A stretch of 8,707 nucleotides of DNA from a virus. Shown here piece by piece: positions 1-8,707 of the stretch (its first letter is position 1; each line of letters starts with the position of its first letter). The position numbers were made by a program, and so were the translations under genes. Below the pieces are notes generated by a model. It did not search any database and was not told the origin of the DNA. It worked only from the letters and a program-made list of their open reading frames with translations. The stretch lies in UHGV virus genome UHGV-0140516; one strand, 5' to 3'.

Positions 1-693
1 AAGTACTGCCGAAAACGACGATACGCAATCAGCAACGTTCTTGATGATATGGTTGTCGGTGATGTGGGAAAAAAAGCAGAAGTGAGCGAGCGCGTACTAA
101 CAAACAAGGAGCTTGGGGAATTACTCCGCGCCCTGGATGACAAAATATTCCCGCCGTACTACAGCGCCCTAATTCGCCTCCTGATTGTTTTCGGATGCCG
201 TACCACCGAGCTAAGGCGCTCTGAGGTGCAGGAGTGGGATTTTAAAGAAATGCTCTGGACGGTACCGAAGGAGCACAGCAAAACGAAGGTCGCCATATTC
301 AGGCCAATACCGGAAAGCATTTTGCCGTTCATCACGCAGCTGGTGGAGCAGAACAGACACACGGGCTTATTGCTTGGTGAACTGAAAGGACAATCTTCGG
401 TAGCAGAGTACGGAAGAACAGCGCACAGACGAATTAATCAAGCCCCCTGGACGTTACACGATATCCGGCACACATTTACAACCATGCTGAACGATTTAGG
501 CGTGGATCCGCATATTGTCGAGCAGCTTACAGCCCACCAGATGCCAGGGATGCAACGAGTCTATAACCACTCCCGCTATCTTGATGCAAAACGTGATGCT
601 CTTAATCTATGGGTAGACCGTCTCGAGCTTCTCCAGAACAATGATGAAAAAATCGTTGTTATGACCCCGCGAATTTACACCCAAAATTCTTGA
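1..693 (+). CDS. int: Tyrosine recombinase / integrase, P4 family, C-terminal catalytic part (5'-truncated at window edge)
   Basis: Frame 1 is open from base 1 with no stop upstream of the listed Met at 49. The translation contains the tyrosine-recombinase catalytic motifs: Arg in FGCRTTELRR, H-x-x-R in LHDIRHTF, and His plus Tyr nucleophile in VYNHSRY. Stop TGA at 691-693. Confidence 0.85.
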   Translation, partial: KYCRKRRYAISNVLDDMVVGDVGKKAEVSERVLTNKELGELLRALDDKIFPPYYSALIRLLIVFGCRTTELRRSEVQEWDFKEMLWTVPKEHSKTKVAIFRPIPESILPFITQLVEQNRHTGLLLGELKGQSSVAEYGRTAHRRINQAPWTLHDIRHTFTTMLNDLGVDPHIVEQLTAHQMPGMQRVYNHSRYLDAKRDALNLWVDRLELLQNNDEKIVVMTPRIYTQNS

Positions 694-743
694 CAAATTA
701 CGGCTGTTTTTTCTTTAAGAGATTACAGCCGTGAATAAATCGT

Positions 744-813
744 AGAATATCAGAAAATATCTGCAAATATCTTCACTTTATATGTGTCAACCATCGAAAA
801 AATTGAAATATCT
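744..813. promoter_or_regulatory. Array of short direct repeats (RAATATC) at roughly helical spacing in the int-alpA intergenic region
   Basis: GAATATC at 745-751 and AAATATCT at 755-762, 765-772 and 806-813. The first three copies are 10-11 bp apart. The region between the int stop and the alpA start is AT-rich. Function (regulator or arm-type integrase sites) is inferred, not shown. Confidence 0.3.
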
Positions 814-1110
814 TCTTCTGAGTTCTTATTTTCTGTTTCTTGATTATTCCAACACCTGATGGTTTATCTATTTGTTTTTAATAAGATAATTCAAGTATCA
901 TGCCAAATGACGACATTTTTTGTTGCGTCGCTTAAAAACTCGTGACACGATTTTATGAACAGCAGCAAACTCTAGCGAACTTTGACGAACATAAAGTTCA
1001 GAAAGGTTACGTATTCAATTTAAGAGGTGAAAAAAGCTAAGAAGTATTCCTTCCCGTATATCCACAGCGAAACAAAAATTTCTATACGTAAATTTTATGT
1101 AGGGCTTTTT

Positions 1111-1320
1111 ATGCGCGAAATAAATGAAGATCGTGTAATCCGTGAAAAAGAATGCAGAGAGCTAACAGGCGTTTGCCGTACAACTCGTTATGAGATGGAA
1201 AAACAAGGCCGCTTTCCCTCCCGTATCAGTCTTGGAGGTCGTTCGGTTGGCTGGGTTAAGTCTGAGGTTATGGAATGGGTTAAAAGCCGGGATCGCATTA
1301 ATTCAGGAAAGGCAGCGTAA
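1111..1320 (+). CDS. alpA: AlpA-type (MerR-like HTH) prophage regulatory protein / excision-transcription regulator
   Basis: The 69-aa product MREINEDRVIREKECRELTGVCRTTRYEMEKQGRFPSRISLGGRSVGWVKSEVMEWVKSR shows the AlpA pattern (HTH, then FP-x-x-I-x-LG-x-R-SVGW-x-x-E-V-x-EW). ATG at 1111 is preceded by AGGG at 1101-1104. The track start at 1027 is GTG with AAGAGG abutting it at no spacing, so it is disfavoured. Confidence 0.75.
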   Translation: MREINEDRVIREKECRELTGVCRTTRYEMEKQGRFPSRISLGGRSVGWVKSEVMEWVKSRDRINSGKAA

Positions 1321-1710
1321 AGGGGAGCATATGACACATAAAACAAAGGCGACCGGGGGCGGTCGCCAATGGGAAAACACTAAACATAAGCCCGAACATC
1401 ATAGCGATTTGCTGGCTGGTGGGCAATGTGATCAGTGTACTGGCTTGCTGGTGGGCTATTCCTGCTCTTTAGCATCGCCATGCTGCGATGTTTTCCAGGT
1501 ATGCGATCCCATTTTTGTGCGCCTGTACTCTTTAAGGAACTTCTCAAGGACAAACGCACATGGTGCGAATCTCTCCGGTTCATGTTCGTTTACCGCATTT
1601 TTGCGTTGTTTTTTCTTGGATGAGGATAATTTCTTTAATGATTTGTCAGTCATCGTAGATACCTGTAACCCTGTGCGTCACAGTTCACCGCACCACGGCA
1701 CTGGTGATGG

Positions 1711-1890
1711 TTACTCCTGCTCTTTGGCCTTCCGGCGCTGGCGGCGTTTGATCTCGCCACGCATGGCTGTAACGATAAACTGCGCGTCTGTTTCGTTTTC
1801 CTCTTTGACCAAATTCATTTCGCTTAAAACTTCTAGAGGGATTCTAGCCGTTTTTTGTTGTGATTTGTTGTTGGTTGTACCCGTTGGCAT
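1711..1890 (-). CDS. Small Arc/Mnt-like ribbon-helix-helix DNA-binding protein (putative repressor), divergent from the replication operon
   Basis: Internal Met of the 115-aa minus ORF. ATG at 1890-1888 is preceded by a strong SD (AAGGAGG, complement of 1896-1902) at 5-6 nt spacing. The 59-aa product MPTGTTNNKSQQKTARIPLEVLSEMNLVKEENETDAQFIVTAMRGEIKRRQRRKAKEQE aligns with P22 Arc (RWPREVL / AEENGRSVNSEIYQRV versus RIPLEVL / KEENETDAQFIVTAMR). Basic C-terminal tail. Confidence 0.55.
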   Translation of the reverse strand: MPTGTTNNKSQQKTARIPLEVLSEMNLVKEENETDAQFIVTAMRGEIKRRQRRKAKEQE

Positions 1891-1951
1891 TACTGGCCTC
1901 CTTACTGTTAGGTGGCGTTCAGTATACGTAGAAAAAAAAATAAAAAAAGGC

Positions 1952-2002
1952 TTGAAGTGCAAGTCACCTAAAAGTAGCATAATCTTCAAAGGTGACTTGC
2001 AC
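1952..2002 (+). promoter_or_regulatory. Candidate sigma70 promoter for the replication operon, overlapped by a 13-bp perfect inverted repeat (putative operator)
   Basis: -35 TTGAAG at 1952-1957, 17-bp spacer, -10 TAGCAT at 1975-1980 (CATAAT at 1978-1983 as alternative). Inverted repeat GTGCAAGTCACCT at 1957-1969 and AGGTGACTTGCAC at 1990-2002 brackets the -10. On the opposite strand, a TATACT -10 (complement of 1921-1926) lies upstream of the RHH gene. Confidence 0.4.
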
Positions 2003-2083
2003 CTTAAAGACAAAGCCCCGCAAGTGTCGTTACCACTCGCAGGGCTTCTAACCACCAACGATAACGATAGTATCGAGGTAGCT

Positions 2084-2606: not shown

Positions 2607-2906
2607 ATGAGAACATATTTATCTGGCTTGACTGCCAGCGGTTATGCACACCCCAAAATTATCCCCGGCGCTATTTATCTGGATAAGAACGGTAACAGAG
2701 TAACGGTAAAAGAACTGATGTTTGACCGTGTGTATTTTATTCGTGATGGATATTCATTTCATAGTTCGCTGAACGTGGAGATCTTTATTAGCAGATTCAG
2801 GCGGGAAATCCCGCTTTCCGGAAATAACCATGTGTCATGTCTGGATGTTGATAAAAAACTACAGGAACTGAAAAACATGATTGCCGCGTGGAGAGAGCAG
2901 AAATGA
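2607..2906 (+). CDS. Hypothetical protein (99 aa), unknown function
   Basis: Starts 7 nt after the upstream stop. Its TGA (2904-2906) overlaps the primase ATG (2903-2905) in an ATGA arrangement. No recognisable motif. Confidence 0.5.
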   Translation: MRTYLSGLTASGYAHPKIIPGAIYLDKNGNRVTVKELMFDRVYFIRDGYSFHSSLNVEIFISRFRREIPLSGNNHVSCLDVDKKLQELKNMIAAWREQK

Positions 2907-4720
2907 AAAAAGCGCCAAATTTAAAACACCAGCCGCGTGACAAAATGACGGAAGTCATCATTTTTGCGGGTAGTAATGCGTGGGCACATGCGAAGCAGTG
3001 GCAGGAACAGGACGGGCGACTGGCTGGCGATAACGTGCCTCCTGTCTGGCTTGGAGAGCAACAACTTGCCGAACTGGACAACCTGCAAATCGTACCGGAC
3101 GGACGCTATCGCGTGCGTCTCTATCAGGCGGGGTTATTGCGTCCGGGGCTTGTTAATACCATCGGGCAGAAACTGGCAGTGGCAGGTGTCAGGGATGCTG
3201 ATTATTACCCTGAAGGAATGCACAGCCAGAAACGGGAGAACTGGCGCGAATATCTGGAACGTGAACGGGCAGAGCAGGCGGAAAAGAAAAAGGTAGTTGA
3301 ACTGCCTGTAAAGAAAAAAGAGCGGGTAAAAGACGATAACGCTTCATCACTGGCGCTTAACCAGATGGGAGCAAGTCAACGCGGCGAAGTTCTCCTGGCA
3401 CATTATGGCGGTGAACTGGCGATTCATGCTGACTCTGACACTGTTCACCATTACAACGGCGTTGTATGGGAGCCAGTACAGGATAAAGAATTACAGCGAG
3501 CTATGGCACAGATTTTCATTGATGCGGAGATCAGCTATTCGCAGAACGCCATTAAATCGGCGGTCGATACCATGAAGTTAAGTTTGCCTGTAATGGGGAA
3601 TACAGCCCGTAACCTGATTGGATTCAGTAACGGGGTATTTGATACCAGAACAGGTAATTTTCGGGAGCATAACAAAAACGACTGGTTGTTAATTGCCAGT
3701 GAATTACCTTTCAGCCCACCAGCAGAGGGGGAAACGCTGGCAACACATGCGCCGAATTTCTGGAAGTGGTTACGCCGTTCGGTGGCTGAGAATGACCGCA
3801 AGGCGGATCGCGTACTGGCTGCATTATTCATGGTGCTGGCGAACCGGTACGACTGGCAGTTATTCATTGAGGTAACAGGTCCAGGGGGAAGTGGTAAAAG
3901 CGTGATGGCGGAGATTTGCACCATGCTGGCGGGTAAGGCCAACACAGTATCGGCAAGCATGAAGGCGCTGGAAGATGCAAGGGAACGCGCGTTAGTGGTT
4001 GGCTTTTCGCTGATTATCATGCCGGATATGACCCGCTACGCTGGTGATGGGGCAGGGATTAAGGCTATTACAGGCGGTGACAAGGTGGCAATTGACCCGA
4101 AACACAAAGCCCCCTACTCAACGCGTATTCCGGCAGTAGTGCTGGCGGTTAACAATAACGCCATGTCATTCAGTGACCGCAGCGGGGGGATCTCACGTCG
4201 TCGGGTGATATTCAATTTTTCGGAAGTTGTACCGGAGAACGAACGCGATCCAATGCTGGCGGAAAAAATAGAAGGTGAGCTGGCGGTAGTGATTCGCCAT
4301 CTGCTTACACGGTTTGCTGACCAGGACGAAGCCAGACGCCTGTTATATGAGCAGCAGAAATCTGAAGAAGCACTGGCGATAAAGCGAGAGGGGGATTCGC
4401 TGGTGGACTTCTGCGGCTATCTCATGGCGTCGGTAATGTGTGATGGCCTGTTAGTGGGTAATGCTGAAATTGTGCCATTCAGCCCACGCAGGTATCTCTA
4501 TCATGCCTATCTGGCTTATATGAGGGCACATGGGTTTGGTAAACCTGTAACACTGACGCGCTTCGGTAAAGATATGCCGGGGGCAATGGCGGAATATGGC
4601 AGGGAGTATATGAAACGGAAAACGAAGCACGGTTTTTGTTCAAACGTGACACTGACGGAGGAATCAGAAGACTGGATGCCATCATGTGTATCGGTCACTA
4701 ATGACGATAGTAAAAATTAA
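2903..4720 (+). CDS. P4-alpha-like primase/helicase replication protein (D5-type NTPase)
   Basis: 605-aa ORF. ATG at 2903 is preceded by GGAGAGAG at 2890-2897; the track start at 2888 is GTG. Walker A GPGGSGKS is encoded at 3878-3901, in frame. Followed immediately by the cognate-type iteron array. Large and well anchored. Confidence 0.85.
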   Translation: MKKAPNLKHQPRDKMTEVIIFAGSNAWAHAKQWQEQDGRLAGDNVPPVWLGEQQLAELDNLQIVPDGRYRVRLYQAGLLRPGLVNTIGQKLAVAGVRDADYYPEGMHSQKRENWREYLERERAEQAEKKKVVELPVKKKERVKDDNASSLALNQMGASQRGEVLLAHYGGELAIHADSDTVHHYNGVVWEPVQDKELQRAMAQIFIDAEISYSQNAIKSAVDTMKLSLPVMGNTARNLIGFSNGVFDTRTGNFREHNKNDWLLIASELPFSPPAEGETLATHAPNFWKWLRRSVAENDRKADRVLAALFMVLANRYDWQLFIEVTGPGGSGKSVMAEICTMLAGKANTVSASMKALEDARERALVVGFSLIIMPDMTRYAGDGAGIKAITGGDKVAIDPKHKAPYSTRIPAVVLAVNNNAMSFSDRSGGISRRRVIFNFSEVVPENERDPMLAEKIEGELAVVIRHLLTRFADQDEARRLLYEQQKSEEALAIKREGDSLVDFCGYLMASVMCDGLLVGNAEIVPFSPRRYLYHAYLAYMRAHGFGKPVTLTRFGKDMPGAMAEYGREYMKRKTKHGFCSNVTLTEESEDWMPSCVSVTNDDSKN

Positions 4721-5007: not shown

Positions 5008-5253
5008 ATGACAGCGAAGCACACAAAAAAATCACAATCGCACGCCCTTGATTTGACGGAACACTGGTTAAGGGTGTCGATAAAAATCATCGACCGCAAC
5101 GCCGGGGAAGGATATGCGAAAGCACATCCCGAACTGATTAGCGCATTCATGACAACGGCAGCTGCAAACTTTGCCACGCTGACAGAACGGGAGATTGCCG
5201 AAGCGGAACAGGTGACAACCATCAACGTTAAAACCGGAGAGCAGACAGCATGA
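5008..5253 (+). CDS. Hypothetical protein (81 aa), translationally coupled to the SSB-like gene
   Basis: ORF starts just downstream of the iteron array. Its TGA (5251-5253) overlaps the ATG (5250-5252) of the next gene. No recognisable motif; weak RBS. Confidence 0.45.
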   Translation: MTAKHTKKSQSHALDLTEHWLRVSIKIIDRNAGEGYAKAHPELISAFMTTAAANFATLTEREIAEAEQVTTINVKTGEQTA

Positions 5254-5672
5254 CAGCACAGATAGCGGCTTACGGGCGGCTGGTGGCTGACCCGCAGTTA
5301 AAGACCACCAGCAAGGGTACACAAATGACGATGGCTAGTATGGCGGTCCCCCTTCCGTGCAGCCAGGCAGATGACGGAACGGCGACGATGTGGTTATCCG
5401 TCCTGGCGTTTGGCAGACAGGCCGACGCACTGGCAAAACACCACAAAGGCGAACTGGTGAGCGTGGCGGGTAACATGCAGGTAAGCCAGTGGACAGGCCA
5501 GAACGGCGAAACGCGGCAGGGCTGGCAGGTTATCGCAGACAGCGTAATCAGTGCGAGAACGGCGCGACCGGGCGGCAAAAAAGGCCAGCAAGGGCAGGCT
5601 ACTGACGCACTGAACAGGGCAAAACAACAGGCGGGTAACGATGATCCGTACGGGGATAACATACCGTTTTAA
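5250..5672 (+). CDS. ssb: Single-stranded DNA-binding protein family (short SSB-like OB-fold protein with C-terminal DNIPF tip)
   Basis: Aligns by eye to E. coli SSB across the OB fold (G-x-L-x-x-DP; W-x-x-V-x-x-FG-x-x-A; KG-x-x-V-x-x-x-G-x-x-x-x-x-x-WT-x-Q-x-G-x-x-R). Ends in DDPYGDNIPF, resembling the SSB DDDIPF partner-binding tip. Shorter than host SSB (140 versus about 178 aa). Confidence 0.7.
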   Translation: MTAQIAAYGRLVADPQLKTTSKGTQMTMASMAVPLPCSQADDGTATMWLSVLAFGRQADALAKHHKGELVSVAGNMQVSQWTGQNGETRQGWQVIADSVISARTARPGGKKGQQGQATDALNRAKQQAGNDDPYGDNIPF

Positions 5673-5686
5673 GCAACGAGTAACAG

Positions 5687-5710
5687 AAGCCGGAGAAGTC
5701 CGGCTTTTTT
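5687..5710 (+). terminator. Rho-independent terminator after the SSB-like gene
   Basis: Stem AGCCGGA (5688-5694), loop GAAG, stem TCCGGCT (5699-5705), then a T6 run ending at 5710. Confidence 0.7.
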
Positions 5711-5720
5711 ATGCCCCAAA

Positions 5721-5758
5721 AAAAGCCCGATAAGGTCAGAGGGTCTTATCGGGCTTTT
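5721..5758. terminator. Second hairpin with A-run and T-run flanks (possible bidirectional terminator)
   Basis: AAAAGCCCGATAAG (5721-5734), a 10-nt loop, then CTTATCGGGCTTTT (5745-5758). Confidence 0.5.
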
Positions 5759-5838
5759 GCATATGAGGCTTTTATCTAACAGTATGGTGACTACTGTTGC
5801 CGGAAATCATTTCACAATTTGCAACACAACTCAACATT

Positions 5839-5899
5839 ATTGCGTAAAATGAAATCATGATTATAATCACAACTGGATGAACATCCAGTTGTGATTTTT
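5839..5899 (+). promoter_or_regulatory. Candidate promoter of the head-gene operon followed immediately by a 15-bp perfect palindrome and T-run (operator or attenuator hairpin)
   Basis: -35 TTGCGT at 5839-5844, 16-bp spacer, -10 TATAAT at 5861-5866. Perfect inverted repeat AATCACAACTGGATG (5864-5878) and CATCCAGTTGTGATT (5882-5896) with a 3-nt spacer, followed by a T5 run (5895-5899). It sits between the promoter and the RBS of the first head-module ORF. Confidence 0.4.
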
Positions 5900-5923: not shown

Positions 5924-6130
5924 ATGGCAGAAGAGAAAAAAGGCGGGGTGACAGTTTACATAAGCCCAGACATCGTGGAGGCGCTCAAGGAACGCCACCA
6001 GCAGAACGTAAAAGCAGGCATTGCGGCAGGACTTGAGCCGCTGGCGATGGTTGAGCCGTCAACAGGCTGGCAGGTACGCGCCTATTTACGCGCGGCGCTG
6101 GGCATGAATCAGACTCATGGGGGTGAATAA
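5924..6130 (+). CDS. Hypothetical protein (68 aa), first ORF of the head module
   Basis: ATG at 5924 with AAAGAGGAA at 5906-5914. The track start at 5891 is GTG inside the palindrome, so it is disfavoured. The stop TAA overlaps the capsid-gene ATG (TAATG at 6128-6132). Confidence 0.5.
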   Translation: MAEEKKGGVTVYISPDIVEALKERHQQNVKAGIAAGLEPLAMVEPSTGWQVRAYLRAALGMNQTHGGE

Positions 6131-7185
6131 TGACAGGCAAAGCAACGGCACTTAACACTAACCAGCTTTTCGCGTACCTGAATCGTGGGGATATTTCGGA
6201 ATTTAAATTCAGTCCGCTGTTTACGTCGCTGTTTTTCCCGAACGTGGCAACCTTCAACACGCAGGACATCATGTTAGATACCCTGGATATTGAAGAAGTC
6301 ACCATGTCGGCTTTTTGTTCGCCTATGGTGGGGAGTCAGGTTCAGCGCGATAAAGGGTACGAAACAAGCACTATCCGCCCTGGCTACATGAAACCAAAAC
6401 ACGAAATCGATCCATCAAAAACCATCATGCGCATGGCTGGAGAAGATCCGGCACAGCTTAACGATCCAACTTATCGCCGTATGCGCCTGATTACTGGCAA
6501 CATGCGCCGCCAGGTAAACGCTATTAAAGCTCGCATAGAATGGCTGGCGGTGAATGCGGTCACGACCGGAAAAAACATCATTGAGGGCGAAGGAATAAAT
6601 AGATACGAAATCGATTGGAAAATCCCGACTAAAAACATCATTACGCAGGGATCGGGCAAAAAGTGGTCTGAGGCAGATAAGGAAACACACGATCCAATCT
6701 ATGACATCGAACTATACACCGATCAGGCTGGTTGCCCCGCCAACGTCATGATTATGGGCGCTGAGGTATGGCGCACGTTACGCAGCTTTAAAAAATTCCG
6801 TGAACTGTACGATCTTTCCCGTGGTTCAGAATCCGCCGCAGAGCTGGCCTGTAAAAACCTGGGCGAAGTAGTGAGCTTTAAAGGCTATCTGGGTGATCTG
6901 GCCCTTATCGTCTATTCCGGCAAATACACCGACAGCGATGGCACCGAAAAATATTTCCTTGAGCCTGATTTGCTTGTCCTGGGCAACACTAACAATAAAG
7001 GGCTGGTGGCCTATGGTGCGATTATGGATCCGGAAGCGGTAAGAACTGGCGCAACGCAAAACATGTACTACCCGAAAAACTGGATTGAGGATGGCGATCC
7101 GGCGATTGAGTACGTGCAGACGCACAGCGCACCGCAGCCGGTACCGGCAGATATTCGCAAATTTGTTACCGTCAAAATTGCTTAA
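6130..7185 (+). CDS. Major capsid protein, lambda gpE family
   Basis: 351-aa product aligns to lambda gpE over its whole length by eye: KFxPLF...LFF near the N-terminus, PGY(V/M)KPKHE, DP-x-x-L-x-DP-x-YRR-x-R-x-I-x-x-NMR, SYKG / SFKG, VVYSG / IVYSG, LGNT, YPKNW and a C-terminal GDPA. Similar length (351 versus 341 aa). Confidence 0.9.
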   Translation: MTGKATALNTNQLFAYLNRGDISEFKFSPLFTSLFFPNVATFNTQDIMLDTLDIEEVTMSAFCSPMVGSQVQRDKGYETSTIRPGYMKPKHEIDPSKTIMRMAGEDPAQLNDPTYRRMRLITGNMRRQVNAIKARIEWLAVNAVTTGKNIIEGEGINRYEIDWKIPTKNIITQGSGKKWSEADKETHDPIYDIELYTDQAGCPANVMIMGAEVWRTLRSFKKFRELYDLSRGSESAAELACKNLGEVVSFKGYLGDLALIVYSGKYTDSDGTEKYFLEPDLLVLGNTNNKGLVAYGAIMDPEAVRTGATQNMYYPKNWIEDGDPAIEYVQTHSAPQPVPADIRKFVTVKIA

Positions 7186-7196
7186 CGGGGGATTCT

Positions 7197-7532
7197 ATGA
7201 ACACTCCATACATTGAGTTATTTGCAGGCAGTCAGCAGGTATCCACGACGCTGGTACATTTTGCCGCTGATGCTGGAGTTATTCAGGAATTTACCCCGCT
7301 GATGCTGGCGGACAATGGCGAGTTTAAGCCGTGGGATGGTCAGGAATCTGGCAAGGCTGTTTATCTGACCTCGTACCCCGTTGACACGTCGACGCAGAAA
7401 TCAGCACAGTGCTATAAGACGGGGATATTTAATATCGCCGCCGTTAACTGGCCTGAGAGCGTCGACACCGATGCGAAAAAATGCGCCGCCTTTGCGGGTT
7501 CTGGCGTATCCGTTCAGCCACTGGCCCGATAA
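7197..7532 (+). CDS. Head decoration protein, lambda gpD family
   Basis: 111-aa product shares with lambda gpD the motifs TPLML, WDG, YK(S/T)G-x-F, WPE and KK-x-x-AFAG. Near-identical length (111 versus 110 aa). RBS GGGGGA upstream. Confidence 0.8.
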   Translation: MNTPYIELFAGSQQVSTTLVHFAADAGVIQEFTPLMLADNGEFKPWDGQESGKAVYLTSYPVDTSTQKSAQCYKTGIFNIAAVNWPESVDTDAKKCAAFAGSGVSVQPLAR

Positions 7533-7544
7533 GCAGAGGGAACG

Positions 7545-7958
7545 ATGGCAACGAATGAAAGTATCATGACGCTACCGCTGGCGAGTAAATTTAAGGCCGA
7601 AGCGCGGGCAATGGCTGACAGAGGTTTATCAACCTACGAGGCCGTATATCAACTTAACAGCCTGGAAGAGAAGGACAAGCCGCGCTCTGATGCGATTATG
7701 GCGCTTGATGAATCTGGCGACTATCAGCCGCTGTTACGTGCAATGGCAAACGTGCCTTGTATCGATGTTGGTACGGCTAAAAGCATCCTTAGCATGACCA
7801 TAGAGCAGGAACGCCAGAAGGTTGCACCAGAGCTTACCGCAGCCTTTGAAAACTTTATGGACATGCACAGCCCGAAAGCCGTATCAGCTGGTATGGCATA
7901 CGCTGGCAGAAACCCGGGCGATGATGGCGACATCGATCGCATACTGAAAACCATCTGA
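7545..7958 (+). CDS. Hypothetical protein (137 aa) between the decoration gene and cos; function unknown
   Basis: Good RBS (AGAGGGAA 5 nt upstream of the ATG). Followed by a strong terminator. No similarity to lambda FI, FII or W that I can see. Confidence 0.6.
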   Translation: MATNESIMTLPLASKFKAEARAMADRGLSTYEAVYQLNSLEEKDKPRSDAIMALDESGDYQPLLRAMANVPCIDVGTAKSILSMTIEQERQKVAPELTAAFENFMDMHSPKAVSAGMAYAGRNPGDDGDIDRILKTI

Positions 7959-7962
7959 GACA

Positions 7963-7987
7963 AGGCCGGAGAAATCCGGCTTTTTTT
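7963..7987 (+). terminator. Rho-independent terminator ending the head-gene operon
   Basis: Stem GGCCGGA (7964-7970), loop GAAA, stem TCCGGC (7975-7980), then a T7 run (7981-7987). Near-duplicate of the terminator at 5687-5710. Confidence 0.75.
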
Positions 7988-8160
7988 ACGGGTCCTTTCC
8001 GGCATATGAACCCGTTACGGGGCGGCGACCTCGCGGTTTTTCGCTATTTATGAGCTTTTTCAGGGTGGTGGTGGTGGTTTTGTTGTTTGCTCTATCTCCA
8101 TGAATAAAAAGGGAAAGATAACACCAACACACCAACCTGAAACCTTGACCAAGTTGGGAT
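7988..8160 (+). other. cos: Lambda-type cos site: cosQ-like element, cosN with a 12-nt cohesive-end sequence identical to lambda, and a divergent cosB-like region
   Basis: ACGGGTCCTTTCCGG (7988-8002) matches the lambda right-end cosQ region. GTTACG then GGGCGGCGACCT (8020-8031) is the lambda cohesive-end sequence. CGCGGTTTTTCGCTATTTATGA (8032-8053) matches lambda left-end bases 13-35 with about one substitution. Downstream (8054-8160) differs from lambda cosB and contains GGTGGTGGTGGTGG (8065-8078) and the oppositely oriented CACCAACACACCAACC (8123-8138). Confidence 0.85.
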
Positions 8161-8164
8161 ATTG

Positions 8165-8707
8165 ATGAAATCGCACCTGATGAACAAAAAAACCATGGCG
8201 CAAAGCTGCCGGGTAAGTGCTACAGCATTCGACAAGTGGGGAGTGACTCCCGTTGAACGTAAAGGCCGTGAGGCGTTTTATGATGTTGCCAGCGTGATAG
8301 ACAATAGGGTTAACAATGCAATTAGCCAGCTTACAAACGACAAAGGCGAGATTGATGATGATGAACTCTTACGAGTCAGGATCAGATTACTGACAGCACA
8401 GGCGGAGGCGCAGGAACTTAAAAACGAGCGCGATCGCGGTGACGTGATTGATACAGAGTTTTGCATGTACGCCCTTTCAAAACTGGCGAGTCAGATTTCA
8501 TCAATCATGGACAGCCTCCCGCTTACTATGCAAAGGAGCTTCCCACAGATGACCCCCGTCATGCTGGATGGCCTGAAAAAAGAAGTTGTCAGAGCCTGTA
8601 ACGCATGCACAAAACTTGATGAAAACATCCCGCGAATGCTGTCCGATTATCTGATGGAAACTACCGGAAATGTGCCTGATAAGTTTCAGCCGGATAAAGA
8701 CAAGTAA
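8165..8707 (+). CDS. Terminase small subunit, lambda Nu1 family
   Basis: Lambda Nu1 LTRAQADAQELKNARDSAEVVETAFCTFVLSRIAGEIASILDGLPLSVQRRFPE...LDELIPGLLSEY aligns with LTAQAEAQELKNERDRGDVIDTEFCMYALSKLASQISSIMDSLPLTMQRSFPQ...LDENIPRMLSDY. The N-terminal NKK...wHTH region is more divergent. First ATG is at 8165; the track start at 8162 is TTG; the ATG at 8180 matches the Nu1 N-terminus better. Position just downstream of cos, as in lambda. Confidence 0.85.
   Translation: MKSHLMNKKTMAQSCRVSATAFDKWGVTPVERKGREAFYDVASVIDNRVNNAISQLTNDKGEIDDDELLRVRIRLLTAQAEAQELKNERDRGDVIDTEFCMYALSKLASQISSIMDSLPLTMQRSFPQMTPVMLDGLKKEVVRACNACTKLDENIPRMLSDYLMETTGNVPDKFQPDKDK

Follow-up and report, generated by a model that had tools for sequence, protein, structure and literature searches.

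The gene preceding cos in an EcCICFT073-type chromosomal island is related to the gpC/Nu3 scaffold region and may encode a free-standing scaffold

RESULTS

Gene content of the window

The window, that is, the whole 8,707-nt stretch of virus genome UHGV-0140516 that was analyzed, carries the greater part of a phage-inducible chromosomal island (PICI) of E. coli, of the EcCICFT073 type. An intact, near-identical island of about 11 kb is present in E. coli TUM1886, where it lies between nfeF and a tRNA-Ile gene, and in strain 06-00048 the island copy is broken by an IS element. A search of the entire window against Rfam returned no RNA family. The features of the window are listed below.

49-693: ORF with the catalytic half only of a tyrosine recombinase
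1027-1320: helix-turn-helix ORF at the alpA position
2607-2906: DUF4222 protein
2888-4720: D5-type primase
5250-5672: single-strand DNA-binding protein
5862-5867 (+): candidate promoter -10 element TATAAT, picked out by eye upstream of the capsid-module operon; putative function
5865-5879 / 5882-5896 (+): perfect 15-nt palindrome overlapping the candidate -10 element
5924-6130 (+): 68-aa first gene of the block; phrog_3255, 1.2e-42; weak match to BrnA_antitoxin, E 0.058
6130-7185 (+): E-like major capsid protein, c1499 orthologue; Pfam Phage_cap_E, 3.3e-52
7197-7532 (+): D-like head decoration protein, c1500 orthologue; Pfam HDPD, 3.4e-18
7545-7958 (+): 137-aa Nu3-like protein, c1501 orthologue; ATG start
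7962-7987 (+): intrinsic terminator closing the four-gene block, assigned by folding
7988-8053 (+): cos site, with a cosQ-like element at 7988-8002 and cosN at 8020-8036
8020-8031 (+): 12-nt cohesive-end sequence GGGCGGCGACCT, within cosN
8162-8707 (+): Nu1-like small terminase subunit (TerS), outside the four-gene block; Pfam Phage_Nu1, 9.8e-23

The block consists of the 68-aa gene, the E-like coat gene, the D-like decoration gene and the 137-aa ORF, which closes it. The 68-aa product is possibly a ribbon-helix-helix-like regulator. Its gene is annotated as a 207-nt coding sequence in all sister islands, has a dN/dS of 0.25-0.28, and shares the ATGA of an overlapping stop and start codon with the coat gene that follows it. 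The E-like protein shares 46% identity with E of CFT073 prophage 4, the native helper of EcCICFT073, 43% with lambda E and 94% with the CFT073 island copy. For the D-like protein, the identity to the helper prophage D was 45% over 75 aa. Terminators are found on both sides of the block and the perfect 15-nt palindrome lies ahead of it, and we infer that the four genes form one operon. The consensus promoter scan skipped the TATAAT at 5862-5867 because its -35 element, TTGCGT at 5840-5845, is weak.

The ORF was annotated as a coding sequence in 593 of 5426 complete E. coli genomes, about one in nine, and was intact at the same length in 591 of these carriers. Likewise, 593 genomes held the 2.27-kb block that runs from the 68-aa gene up to cos, counted when at least 80% of it was present. 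The position of the ORF and the order of the genes around it are the same in the window and in the loci L001, L003, L004 and L006-L011. The block is kept across islands with D5 primase, RepA helicase or DUF927 replication genes, whether the gene behind cos encodes a Nu1-like TerS or an Rpp protein.

Signals of the ORF and the cos site

The 137-aa ORF follows the stop codon of the D-like gene after a gap of 12 nt, and a GAGGGA ribosome-binding site is located at 7536-7541, 3 bases ahead of its ATG. Directly 3' of the ORF stop, a 9-bp GC-rich hairpin (7962-7983) is followed by a T-run that extends to 7987. For the 46-nt segment 7950-7995, the fold energy is -19.1 kcal/mol, with a z value of -3.2 versus shuffles. 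The consensus terminator scan did not flag the hairpin at 7962-7987, probably because the stem can extend into the T-run, and flagged cosN alone. The first-pass annotation had described a gene with a good ribosome-binding site that is the last one before a strong terminator and cos, and both statements agree with these signals.

The cosN sequence GGGCGGCGACCTCGCGG occurs a single time, at 8020-8036, with 0 occurrences expected in shuffles. When the region was aligned with the joined lambda ends, cosN and the cosQ sequence ACGGGTCCTTTCCGG (7988-8002) were kept, and the divergence from lambda on the cosB side begins after TATTTATGA. The function of the equivalent site of EcCICFT073, cos1, has been demonstrated (PMC6092414).

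Over its full length (residues 1-137), the ORF product matched positions 1-134 of the 135 positions of the phrog_1999 profile (6.7e-62). No usable match came from NCBIfam, PADLOC or, at E values up to 10, Pfam. The dN/dS (omega) of the ORF was 0.24-0.31 across 8 loci, compared with 0.11 for the E-like gene and 0.10 for the D-like gene. The ORF at 7545-7958 is a real gene under purifying selection.

Identity with c1501 of EcCICFT073

The ORF product is 95% identical over all 137 aa to c1501 (WP_000224596.1) of EcCICFT073. The primers that were used to clone pBAD18-c1501 (Table S5, PMC6739421) match the upstream flank of the ORF and its downstream terminator. The primers bracket the ORF, indicating that it is the orthologue of c1501. 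The neighbours are shared as well: in EcCICFT073, c1501 stands with the 68-aa gene, the c1499 coat gene and the c1500 decoration gene, followed by the terminator and cos1. The two islands differ after cos, where EcCICFT073 encodes RppA and the window a Nu1-like TerS, and also at the integrase/alpA end. The window TerS, which occupies the place of RppA, is full-length, shares 37% identity with lambda Nu1 over 179 aa and showed no similarity to RppA.

For c1501, published genetics are available from work with lambda. In the study of Fillol-Salom et al. (2019), c1503 (RppA) was the only one of the region's cloned island genes that cut lambda plaquing (PMC6739421). The c1501 clone did not reduce plaquing, indicating that over-expressed c1501 does not block lambda. 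All clones were tested on lambda, and phage 80 and HK97 are mentioned for c1503 only (PMC6739421). The marker "c1501::tetA" comes from Fillol-Salom et al. (2018). One of its homology arms ends at the c1501 TGA and the other begins at the terminator. The cassette thus sits after the gene and is not a c1501 knockout, and no loss-of-function test of c1501 was found in the published work consulted. Deletion of c1499 or c1500 left the transfer of EcCICFT073 and its interference unchanged, and with lambda as the helper, EcCICFT073 DNA was packaged in phage-sized heads only (PMC6092414).

The gene and its island family were known already, and c1501 had been cloned. The product had been called unknown in the first-pass annotation, which is only partly right: the gene is the c1501 orthologue and its product a gpC/Nu3 homologue.

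Identity with an Rpp or TerS protein was considered and rejected. By BLASTP, the ORF product did not match RppA or the Rpp protein of island L004, and its match to the window TerS was at chance level. Rpp proteins and Nu1-type TerS carry an N-terminal winged helix-turn-helix and their genes lie just downstream of cos, whereas the ORF lies upstream of it. For RppA (c1503) of EcCICFT073, downstream of cos, packaging specificity has been shown experimentally (PMC6739421). The role of a packaging-specificity factor, which had been suggested for the ORF from its position, belongs to these downstream genes (RppA/TerS), and the ORF is similar to neither.

Homology to the gpC/Nu3 scaffold region

The ORF product matched the profile phrog_53, "head maturation protease," with an E value of 1.3e-8 at profile positions 494-568 of 583. 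By BLASTP, residues 49-131 were 36% identical over 83 aa (E 9e-10) to the S49 peptidase of CFT073 prophage 4, in which the matched stretch comprises residues 416-493 of 501 aa. Alignment of the island proteins with gpC C-termini by hhalign gave a probability of 97% and an E value of 7.9e-11 over 74 columns. When the pieces were scored singly, the repeat unit (residues 47-92) gave an E value of 1.8e-7 and the tail motif (residues 98-118) one of 1.2e-7. The tail motif reads FENFMDMHSPKAVSAG in the ORF and FEHFMANHSPAAVQGG in gpC of the native helper, prophage 4. In the same region, the similarity to lambda gpC was weak, with 22% identity and a pairwise E value of 0.046.

Other searches returned the same relatives. 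The best tblastn match in the phage collection is annotated as Nu3, and when the ORF was compared by BLASTP with the complete sets of lambda and prophage-4 head proteins, gpC was the sole significant match. An exhaustive HMMER search, run over 1.8 billion representative proteins, recovered the island family, an allele with 39% identity, and a single gpC C-terminal fragment whose gene adjoins D and E. The matches to its own family were essentially E. coli island copies only. HMMER thus yielded few relatives, indicating that the ORF family is narrow, and no relative turned up when one genome per species was scanned. One further weak HMMER match, P0042 (E 1.4e-4), consists of repetitive sequence and was judged spurious.

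On this sequence evidence, residues 47-121 of the ORF are homologous to the C-terminal end of gpC/Nu3, which comprises its final helical repeat and the FxxFMxxHSP tail. Shared with lambdoid gpC/Nu3 is a repeat unit of the type …IMALDEa.g…A..LA..PgmtvE.Ak.iL…, which is followed by an FxxFMxxHSP-type tail. Nu3 of lambda is a scaffold whose C-terminus is common with gpC and which interacts with E in a two-hybrid assay (PMC3224144). Like lambda Nu3, the ORF product is acidic and helical (pI 4.8, compared with 4.5 for Nu3), and like gpC/Nu3, it is encoded alongside D-type and E-type head genes.

There are also differences. Nu3 is nested in frame within the S49 protease gene C, whereas the ORF is free-standing and has its own ribosome-binding site; no S49 peptidase was matched among the window proteins scanned, and none is annotated in the full sister islands. 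The gene order is C/Nu3, D, E in lambda and prophage 4, but E, D, ORF in the island. Nothing in the ORF corresponds to the N-terminal ~110 residues of lambda Nu3, which comprise the end of the protease fold and a low-complexity linker. Its own ends also differ from gpC/Nu3, with an N-terminal SIMxLPLASKF motif and a C-terminal DRILKTI. The identity to the helper prophage counterparts was 46% for E, 45% for D and 36% for the ORF, and this similar depth of divergence fits an old module whose genes were inherited together rather than a recent capture.

These results bear on the first-pass annotation in several ways. It had stated that the ORF is unlike lambda FI, FII and W, and BLASTP indeed found no similarity to them. 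As a positional comparison, these proteins were the wrong choice, and the real relative, gpC/Nu3, which is encoded upstream of D and E in lambda, was missed. A scaffold had been among the candidates proposed from position, and the match of residues 47-121 to the scaffold part of gpC/Nu3 favors such a function. Profile comparison and structure prediction had been suggested as checks; the former gave the hhalign probability of 97% to gpC/Nu3, and the latter a helical domain with generic fold matches.

RefSeq calls several orthologues "phage head-tail connector protein," but Pfam connector families gave no match even at E up to 10, and NCBIfam returned nothing usable. One phage record labels the matching gene "head-tail preconnector," an old gpC/Nu3 name, and the RefSeq connector name may derive from this label. 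The ORF is also the last gene ahead of cos, and its size (137 aa) and acidity recall lambda FI (132 aa), although W, FI and FII of lambda and prophage 4 are dissimilar to it. We regard it as highly improbable that the ORF is a head-completion or packaging accessory, i.e., a head-tail connector or an FI-like chaperone linking terminase and prohead.

As specific identities, a connector was rejected, since no profile or fold search supports it, and FI, W and FII were rejected with an E value of 0.97 for lambda FI and with gpC as the only significant BLASTP match.

Protein architecture

The ORF product consists of a conserved N-terminal segment (residues 1-46), followed by the gpC/Nu3-like region. 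The gpC homologues have between one (lambda) and three (prophage 4) units of ~40 aa, with the consensus …IMALDEAkGrE…LA..PGMTvE.Ar.iL…, and then the tail. In the ORF, one such unit is clear (residues 47-92), again with the tail behind it. The N-terminal segment of the ORF is possibly a degenerate second repeat unit. Landmarks recur at a spacing of 44 residues, with IMxL at 7 and 51 and RAMA at 21 and 65. Natural variants of 93 aa are missing exactly residues 25-68, that is, one 44-aa unit, in register. When residues 1-46 were aligned as a unit by hhalign, the E value was 0.007 within the protein and 0.13 against phage units. With the repeat-unit HMM, unit 2 (residues 48-83) obtained 5.7 bits, a value inside the range of shuffled sequences, which reach 6.6 bits.

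The two ends of the protein are strongly conserved. IMxLPLASKF (residues 7-16) is invariant except for position 9, even in the 39% allele. The C-terminal residues 130-137 read IDRILKTI, in which position 131 alone varies; positions 130 and 132-137 (I-RILKTI) are invariant in 7 of 7 aligned sequences, including the 39% allele.

AlphaFold gave a pLDDT of 42 from the single sequence and of 76 with an alignment. The model made with the alignment is all-helical, with confident residues ~10-95 and a weak tail, and in this low-confidence tail, short helices were placed at 95-108 and 127-136. The ORF product is thus predicted to be a compact helical domain with a flexible acidic tail that ends in a short amphipathic helix. 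Fold searches with the AlphaFold model returned generic helical bundles only. Among solved structures, searches by sequence gave only chance-level matches to Integrator subunit 1. The PDB does not cover the C-terminal region of gpC/Nu3 and contains relatives of the S49 protease core alone.

The ORF corresponds to the C-terminal part of gpC only, and an inactive leftover, i.e., a functionless fragment of the gpC gene captured together with D and E, would have this appearance. The natural 93-aa deletion variants and a capsid module with no reported phenotype (PMC6092414) are in line with such an origin. However, the E, D and ORF genes are all under purifying selection (omega 0.24-0.31 for the ORF), which makes a nonfunctional leftover less likely, and the same-length intact ORF persists in nearly all carriers (591/593). 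A ribosome-binding site and start codon of its own, and the N-terminal motif and C-terminal residues that are invariant across the 39% allele, likewise speak against it, and the rearranged position downstream of D indicates that the ORF is not simply a truncated capture. We therefore consider an inactive leftover quite improbable.

A divergent allele and possible action on the helper

Island L004 shares 85% identity with the window in E and D but only 39% in the Nu3-like protein. This allele has the same length and the same neighbours, and its FxxFMxxHSP motif has decayed. The dS between the two ORF alleles is saturated, at 2.8 compared with 0.8 for E and D. This pattern points to allele replacement at the Nu3-like gene. 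The decayed motif runs counter to simple co-evolution with the island's own coat.

Such a pattern could arise if the ORF acted on the helper as a competing-scaffold mimic, in the manner of CpmB of SaPI1. The gpC/Nu3-derived tail would occupy docking sites on the helper coat, or, as an alternative target, the ORF would pair with helper Nu3/gpC, and helper assembly would be biased via head size, protease exclusion or incorporation of the island coat. As a precedent, the 80alpha scaffold and CpmB have a C-terminal helix-and-hook in common, and the two compete for one and the same site on the coat (PMC5644958). The ORF tail FENFMDMHSPKAVSAG is nearest to that of the native helper, FEHFMANHSPAAVQGG, and the 39% allele has changed its tail though the island's own E is 85% conserved, which suggests a partner outside the island. 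The saturated dS indicates an allele replacement of the kind that occurs in specificity genes, but the pattern comes from one divergent allele only, and the island's own coat gene offers a more economical partner. The results with lambda also weigh against the mimic, as plaquing was not reduced by over-expressed c1501 (PMC6739421) and the island DNA was found in phage-sized heads only (PMC6092414). We consider the mimic possible but rather unlikely.

With regard to these negative results, lambda carries the distant type of gpC tail and prophage 4 the close one. The first-pass annotation had also named helper interference as a candidate function. This proposal is weakened by the absence of an effect of the 95%-identical orthologue (pBAD18-c1501) on lambda, but it retains the argument that the native helper has a close tail.

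DISCUSSION

In EcCICFT073, neither the loss of the coat gene nor that of the decoration gene had a measured effect. The ORF that follows these genes is related to gpC/Nu3. By analogy with Nu3, we lean towards the reading that the ORF is a free-standing, protease-less internal scaffold or assembly chaperone of the Nu3 type for an E-type coat. The ORF tail would dock on the inner face of coat subunits, mainly those of the island's own E-like protein, and the helical domain would self-associate and thereby concentrate the coat subunits. The concentrated subunits would then assemble into a shell on the helper portal, and the ORF protein would later be removed by the helper gpC protease or expelled when DNA is packaged. 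Binding of the tail to an E-type coat is proposed because of the analogy with the Nu3-E interaction and with the C-terminal helices of other scaffolds; scaffold proteins bind coat via such a helix, as does the 80alpha scaffold protein (PMC5644958). The island's own coat protein is presumably the most economical partner of the ORF.

Several observations do not fit a scaffold easily. Deletions of c1499 and c1500 were silent (PMC6092414), indicating that the module that the ORF would serve is dispensable under the tested conditions. The island order E, D, ORF is unlike the phage order C/Nu3, D, E. The tail motif has decayed in the 39% allele despite an island E that is 85% conserved, and the matches from the fold searches were generic helical bundles.

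If the ORF does encode a scaffold of the Nu3 type, the three proteins required for a lambda-type shell are all present in the island, and the E-like coat, the D-like decoration protein and the ORF form a complete shell kit of its own. The cos site and TerS (or Rpp) are its own DNA-recognition kit. The island would still need the portal, protease, large terminase, connectors and tail of a helper. The link to gpC/Nu3 completes a coat-decoration-scaffold set in a very common E. coli satellite. It also comes with two corrections to the record: the RefSeq name "head-tail connector protein" is unsupported, and c1501::tetA leaves c1501 undisrupted.

A more far-reaching view is that the E-like, D-like and Nu3-like proteins are a working satellite shell kit and that these islands stand half-way between classical and capsid-forming PICIs. 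We hold this view to be unlikely on present evidence. An own or hybrid shell would be built on the helper portal with the helper protease, and the Nu3-like protein would nucleate the shell or outcompete gpC/Nu3 on helpers with a matching tail. On this view, lambda and phage 80 would have given no phenotype because they do not match the island as helpers. Classical PICIs steal whole heads, whereas capsid-forming PICIs take tails only.

Among known satellite proteins, CpmB of SaPI1 (PMC5644958) resembles the ORF product in being a small helical satellite protein with a C-terminal region like that of the helper scaffold. Over the final 80 residues of helper gpC, with the FxxFMxxHSP motif among them, the ORF shares 36% identity. 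The ORF ending, …RILKTI, recalls the RIIK hook, but this is a resemblance only; CpmB has no sequence homology to the ORF, and the helpers are of different families. SaPI1 has no coat gene, and CpmB acts on the helper coat only, whereas the window island has coat and decoration genes. A CpmB-type protein redirects helper head assembly to small heads and interferes with the helper; EcCICFT073 gave no small heads when lambda was the helper (PMC6092414).

Capsid-forming PICIs (cf-PICIs), such as EcCIEDL933, encode a full set consisting of portal, protease, large terminase, HNH nuclease and connectors (bioRxiv 10.1101/2022.09.08.507074). In contrast, the window island is limited to a lambda-type coat, a decoration protein, the scaffold-like protein, TerS and cos. 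Both kinds of island share an int-alpA-primase backbone, head genes derived from phages, and a small terminase (bioRxiv 10.1101/2022.09.08.507074).

Variation of the ORF

The natural 93-aa variants of the 137-aa ORF (P0024, P0026 and P0031) lack residues 25 to 68 by an in-frame deletion. The deleted segment is exactly 44 aa, the distance between two successive RAMA motifs, at which it begins and ends. As read by eye from the DNA of the window, both deletion junctions share an 8-nt microhomology (gcaatggc).

In the Logan ERR3372453 island (L004), the ORF allele at 1873-2277 is only 39% identical to the ORF, against 84 to 85% identity for the coat, decoration and Rpp genes on either side. Synonymous divergence in this island is saturated for the ORF gene only, which suggests that the ORF was swapped by allele replacement inside a conserved block. 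The genome of E. coli A33 (NZ_CP028742.1) contains five copies of the ORF and therefore presumably carries five islands of its family.

The c1501::tetA marker of EcCICFT073, which carries the orthologue of the ORF as c1501, is in wide use. According to the primer tables in the supplements of PMC6092414 and PMC6739421, the insertion site lies between the c1501 stop codon and its terminator. Because the cassette sits after the stop codon and before the terminator, c1501 itself is not disrupted, but the insertion could part c1501 from its terminator and cos.

Putative control region of the capsid-module operon

The following features are found around the start of the proposed operon.

~5688-5760, two hairpin terminators, 3' of the ssb gene
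5865-5879 / 5882-5896, perfect 15-nt palindrome, directly upstream of the 68-aa gene
5924-6130, conserved 68-aa gene (phrog_3255)

The palindrome overlaps a TATAAT hexamer at 5862-5867, and the region 5840-5896 looks like a regulated promoter with the operator of the capsid-module operon. The stop of the 68-aa gene is overlapped by the start of the coat gene. The 68-aa product gives a weak BrnA/ribbon-helix-helix-like match (E = 0.058) and may be a regulator that binds the upstream palindrome.

Left end of the island

The left end of the window (1-2005) has no homology to the islands of strains 06-00048 and TUM1886, which are otherwise 99% identical. In the ORF at 49-693, a tyrosine recombinase is represented by its C-terminal half alone, the one with the catalytic domain. 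The integrase/alpA end of the island is mosaic.

cos region and the gene behind cos

The gene behind cos in the window is the following.

8162-8707, full-length Nu1-like small terminase (TerS), 37% identical to lambda Nu1

Between cosN and terS lies an inverted repeat (8058-8070 / 8130-8142), a candidate for an island-specific cosB element. The window stops at the end of terS, and no second copy of the cos core was found in it. In the EcCICFT073 locus of CFT073 (L003), the cos core is present again, inverted, downstream of rppA (3276-3340), and this copy matches the published cos2 site of EcCICFT073.

Among the sister islands, the block of the 68-aa gene, E-like coat gene, D-like decoration gene, ORF and cos is followed by TerS in some and by Rpp in others. 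In EcCICFT073, the position held in the window by the Nu1-like TerS is occupied by RppA.
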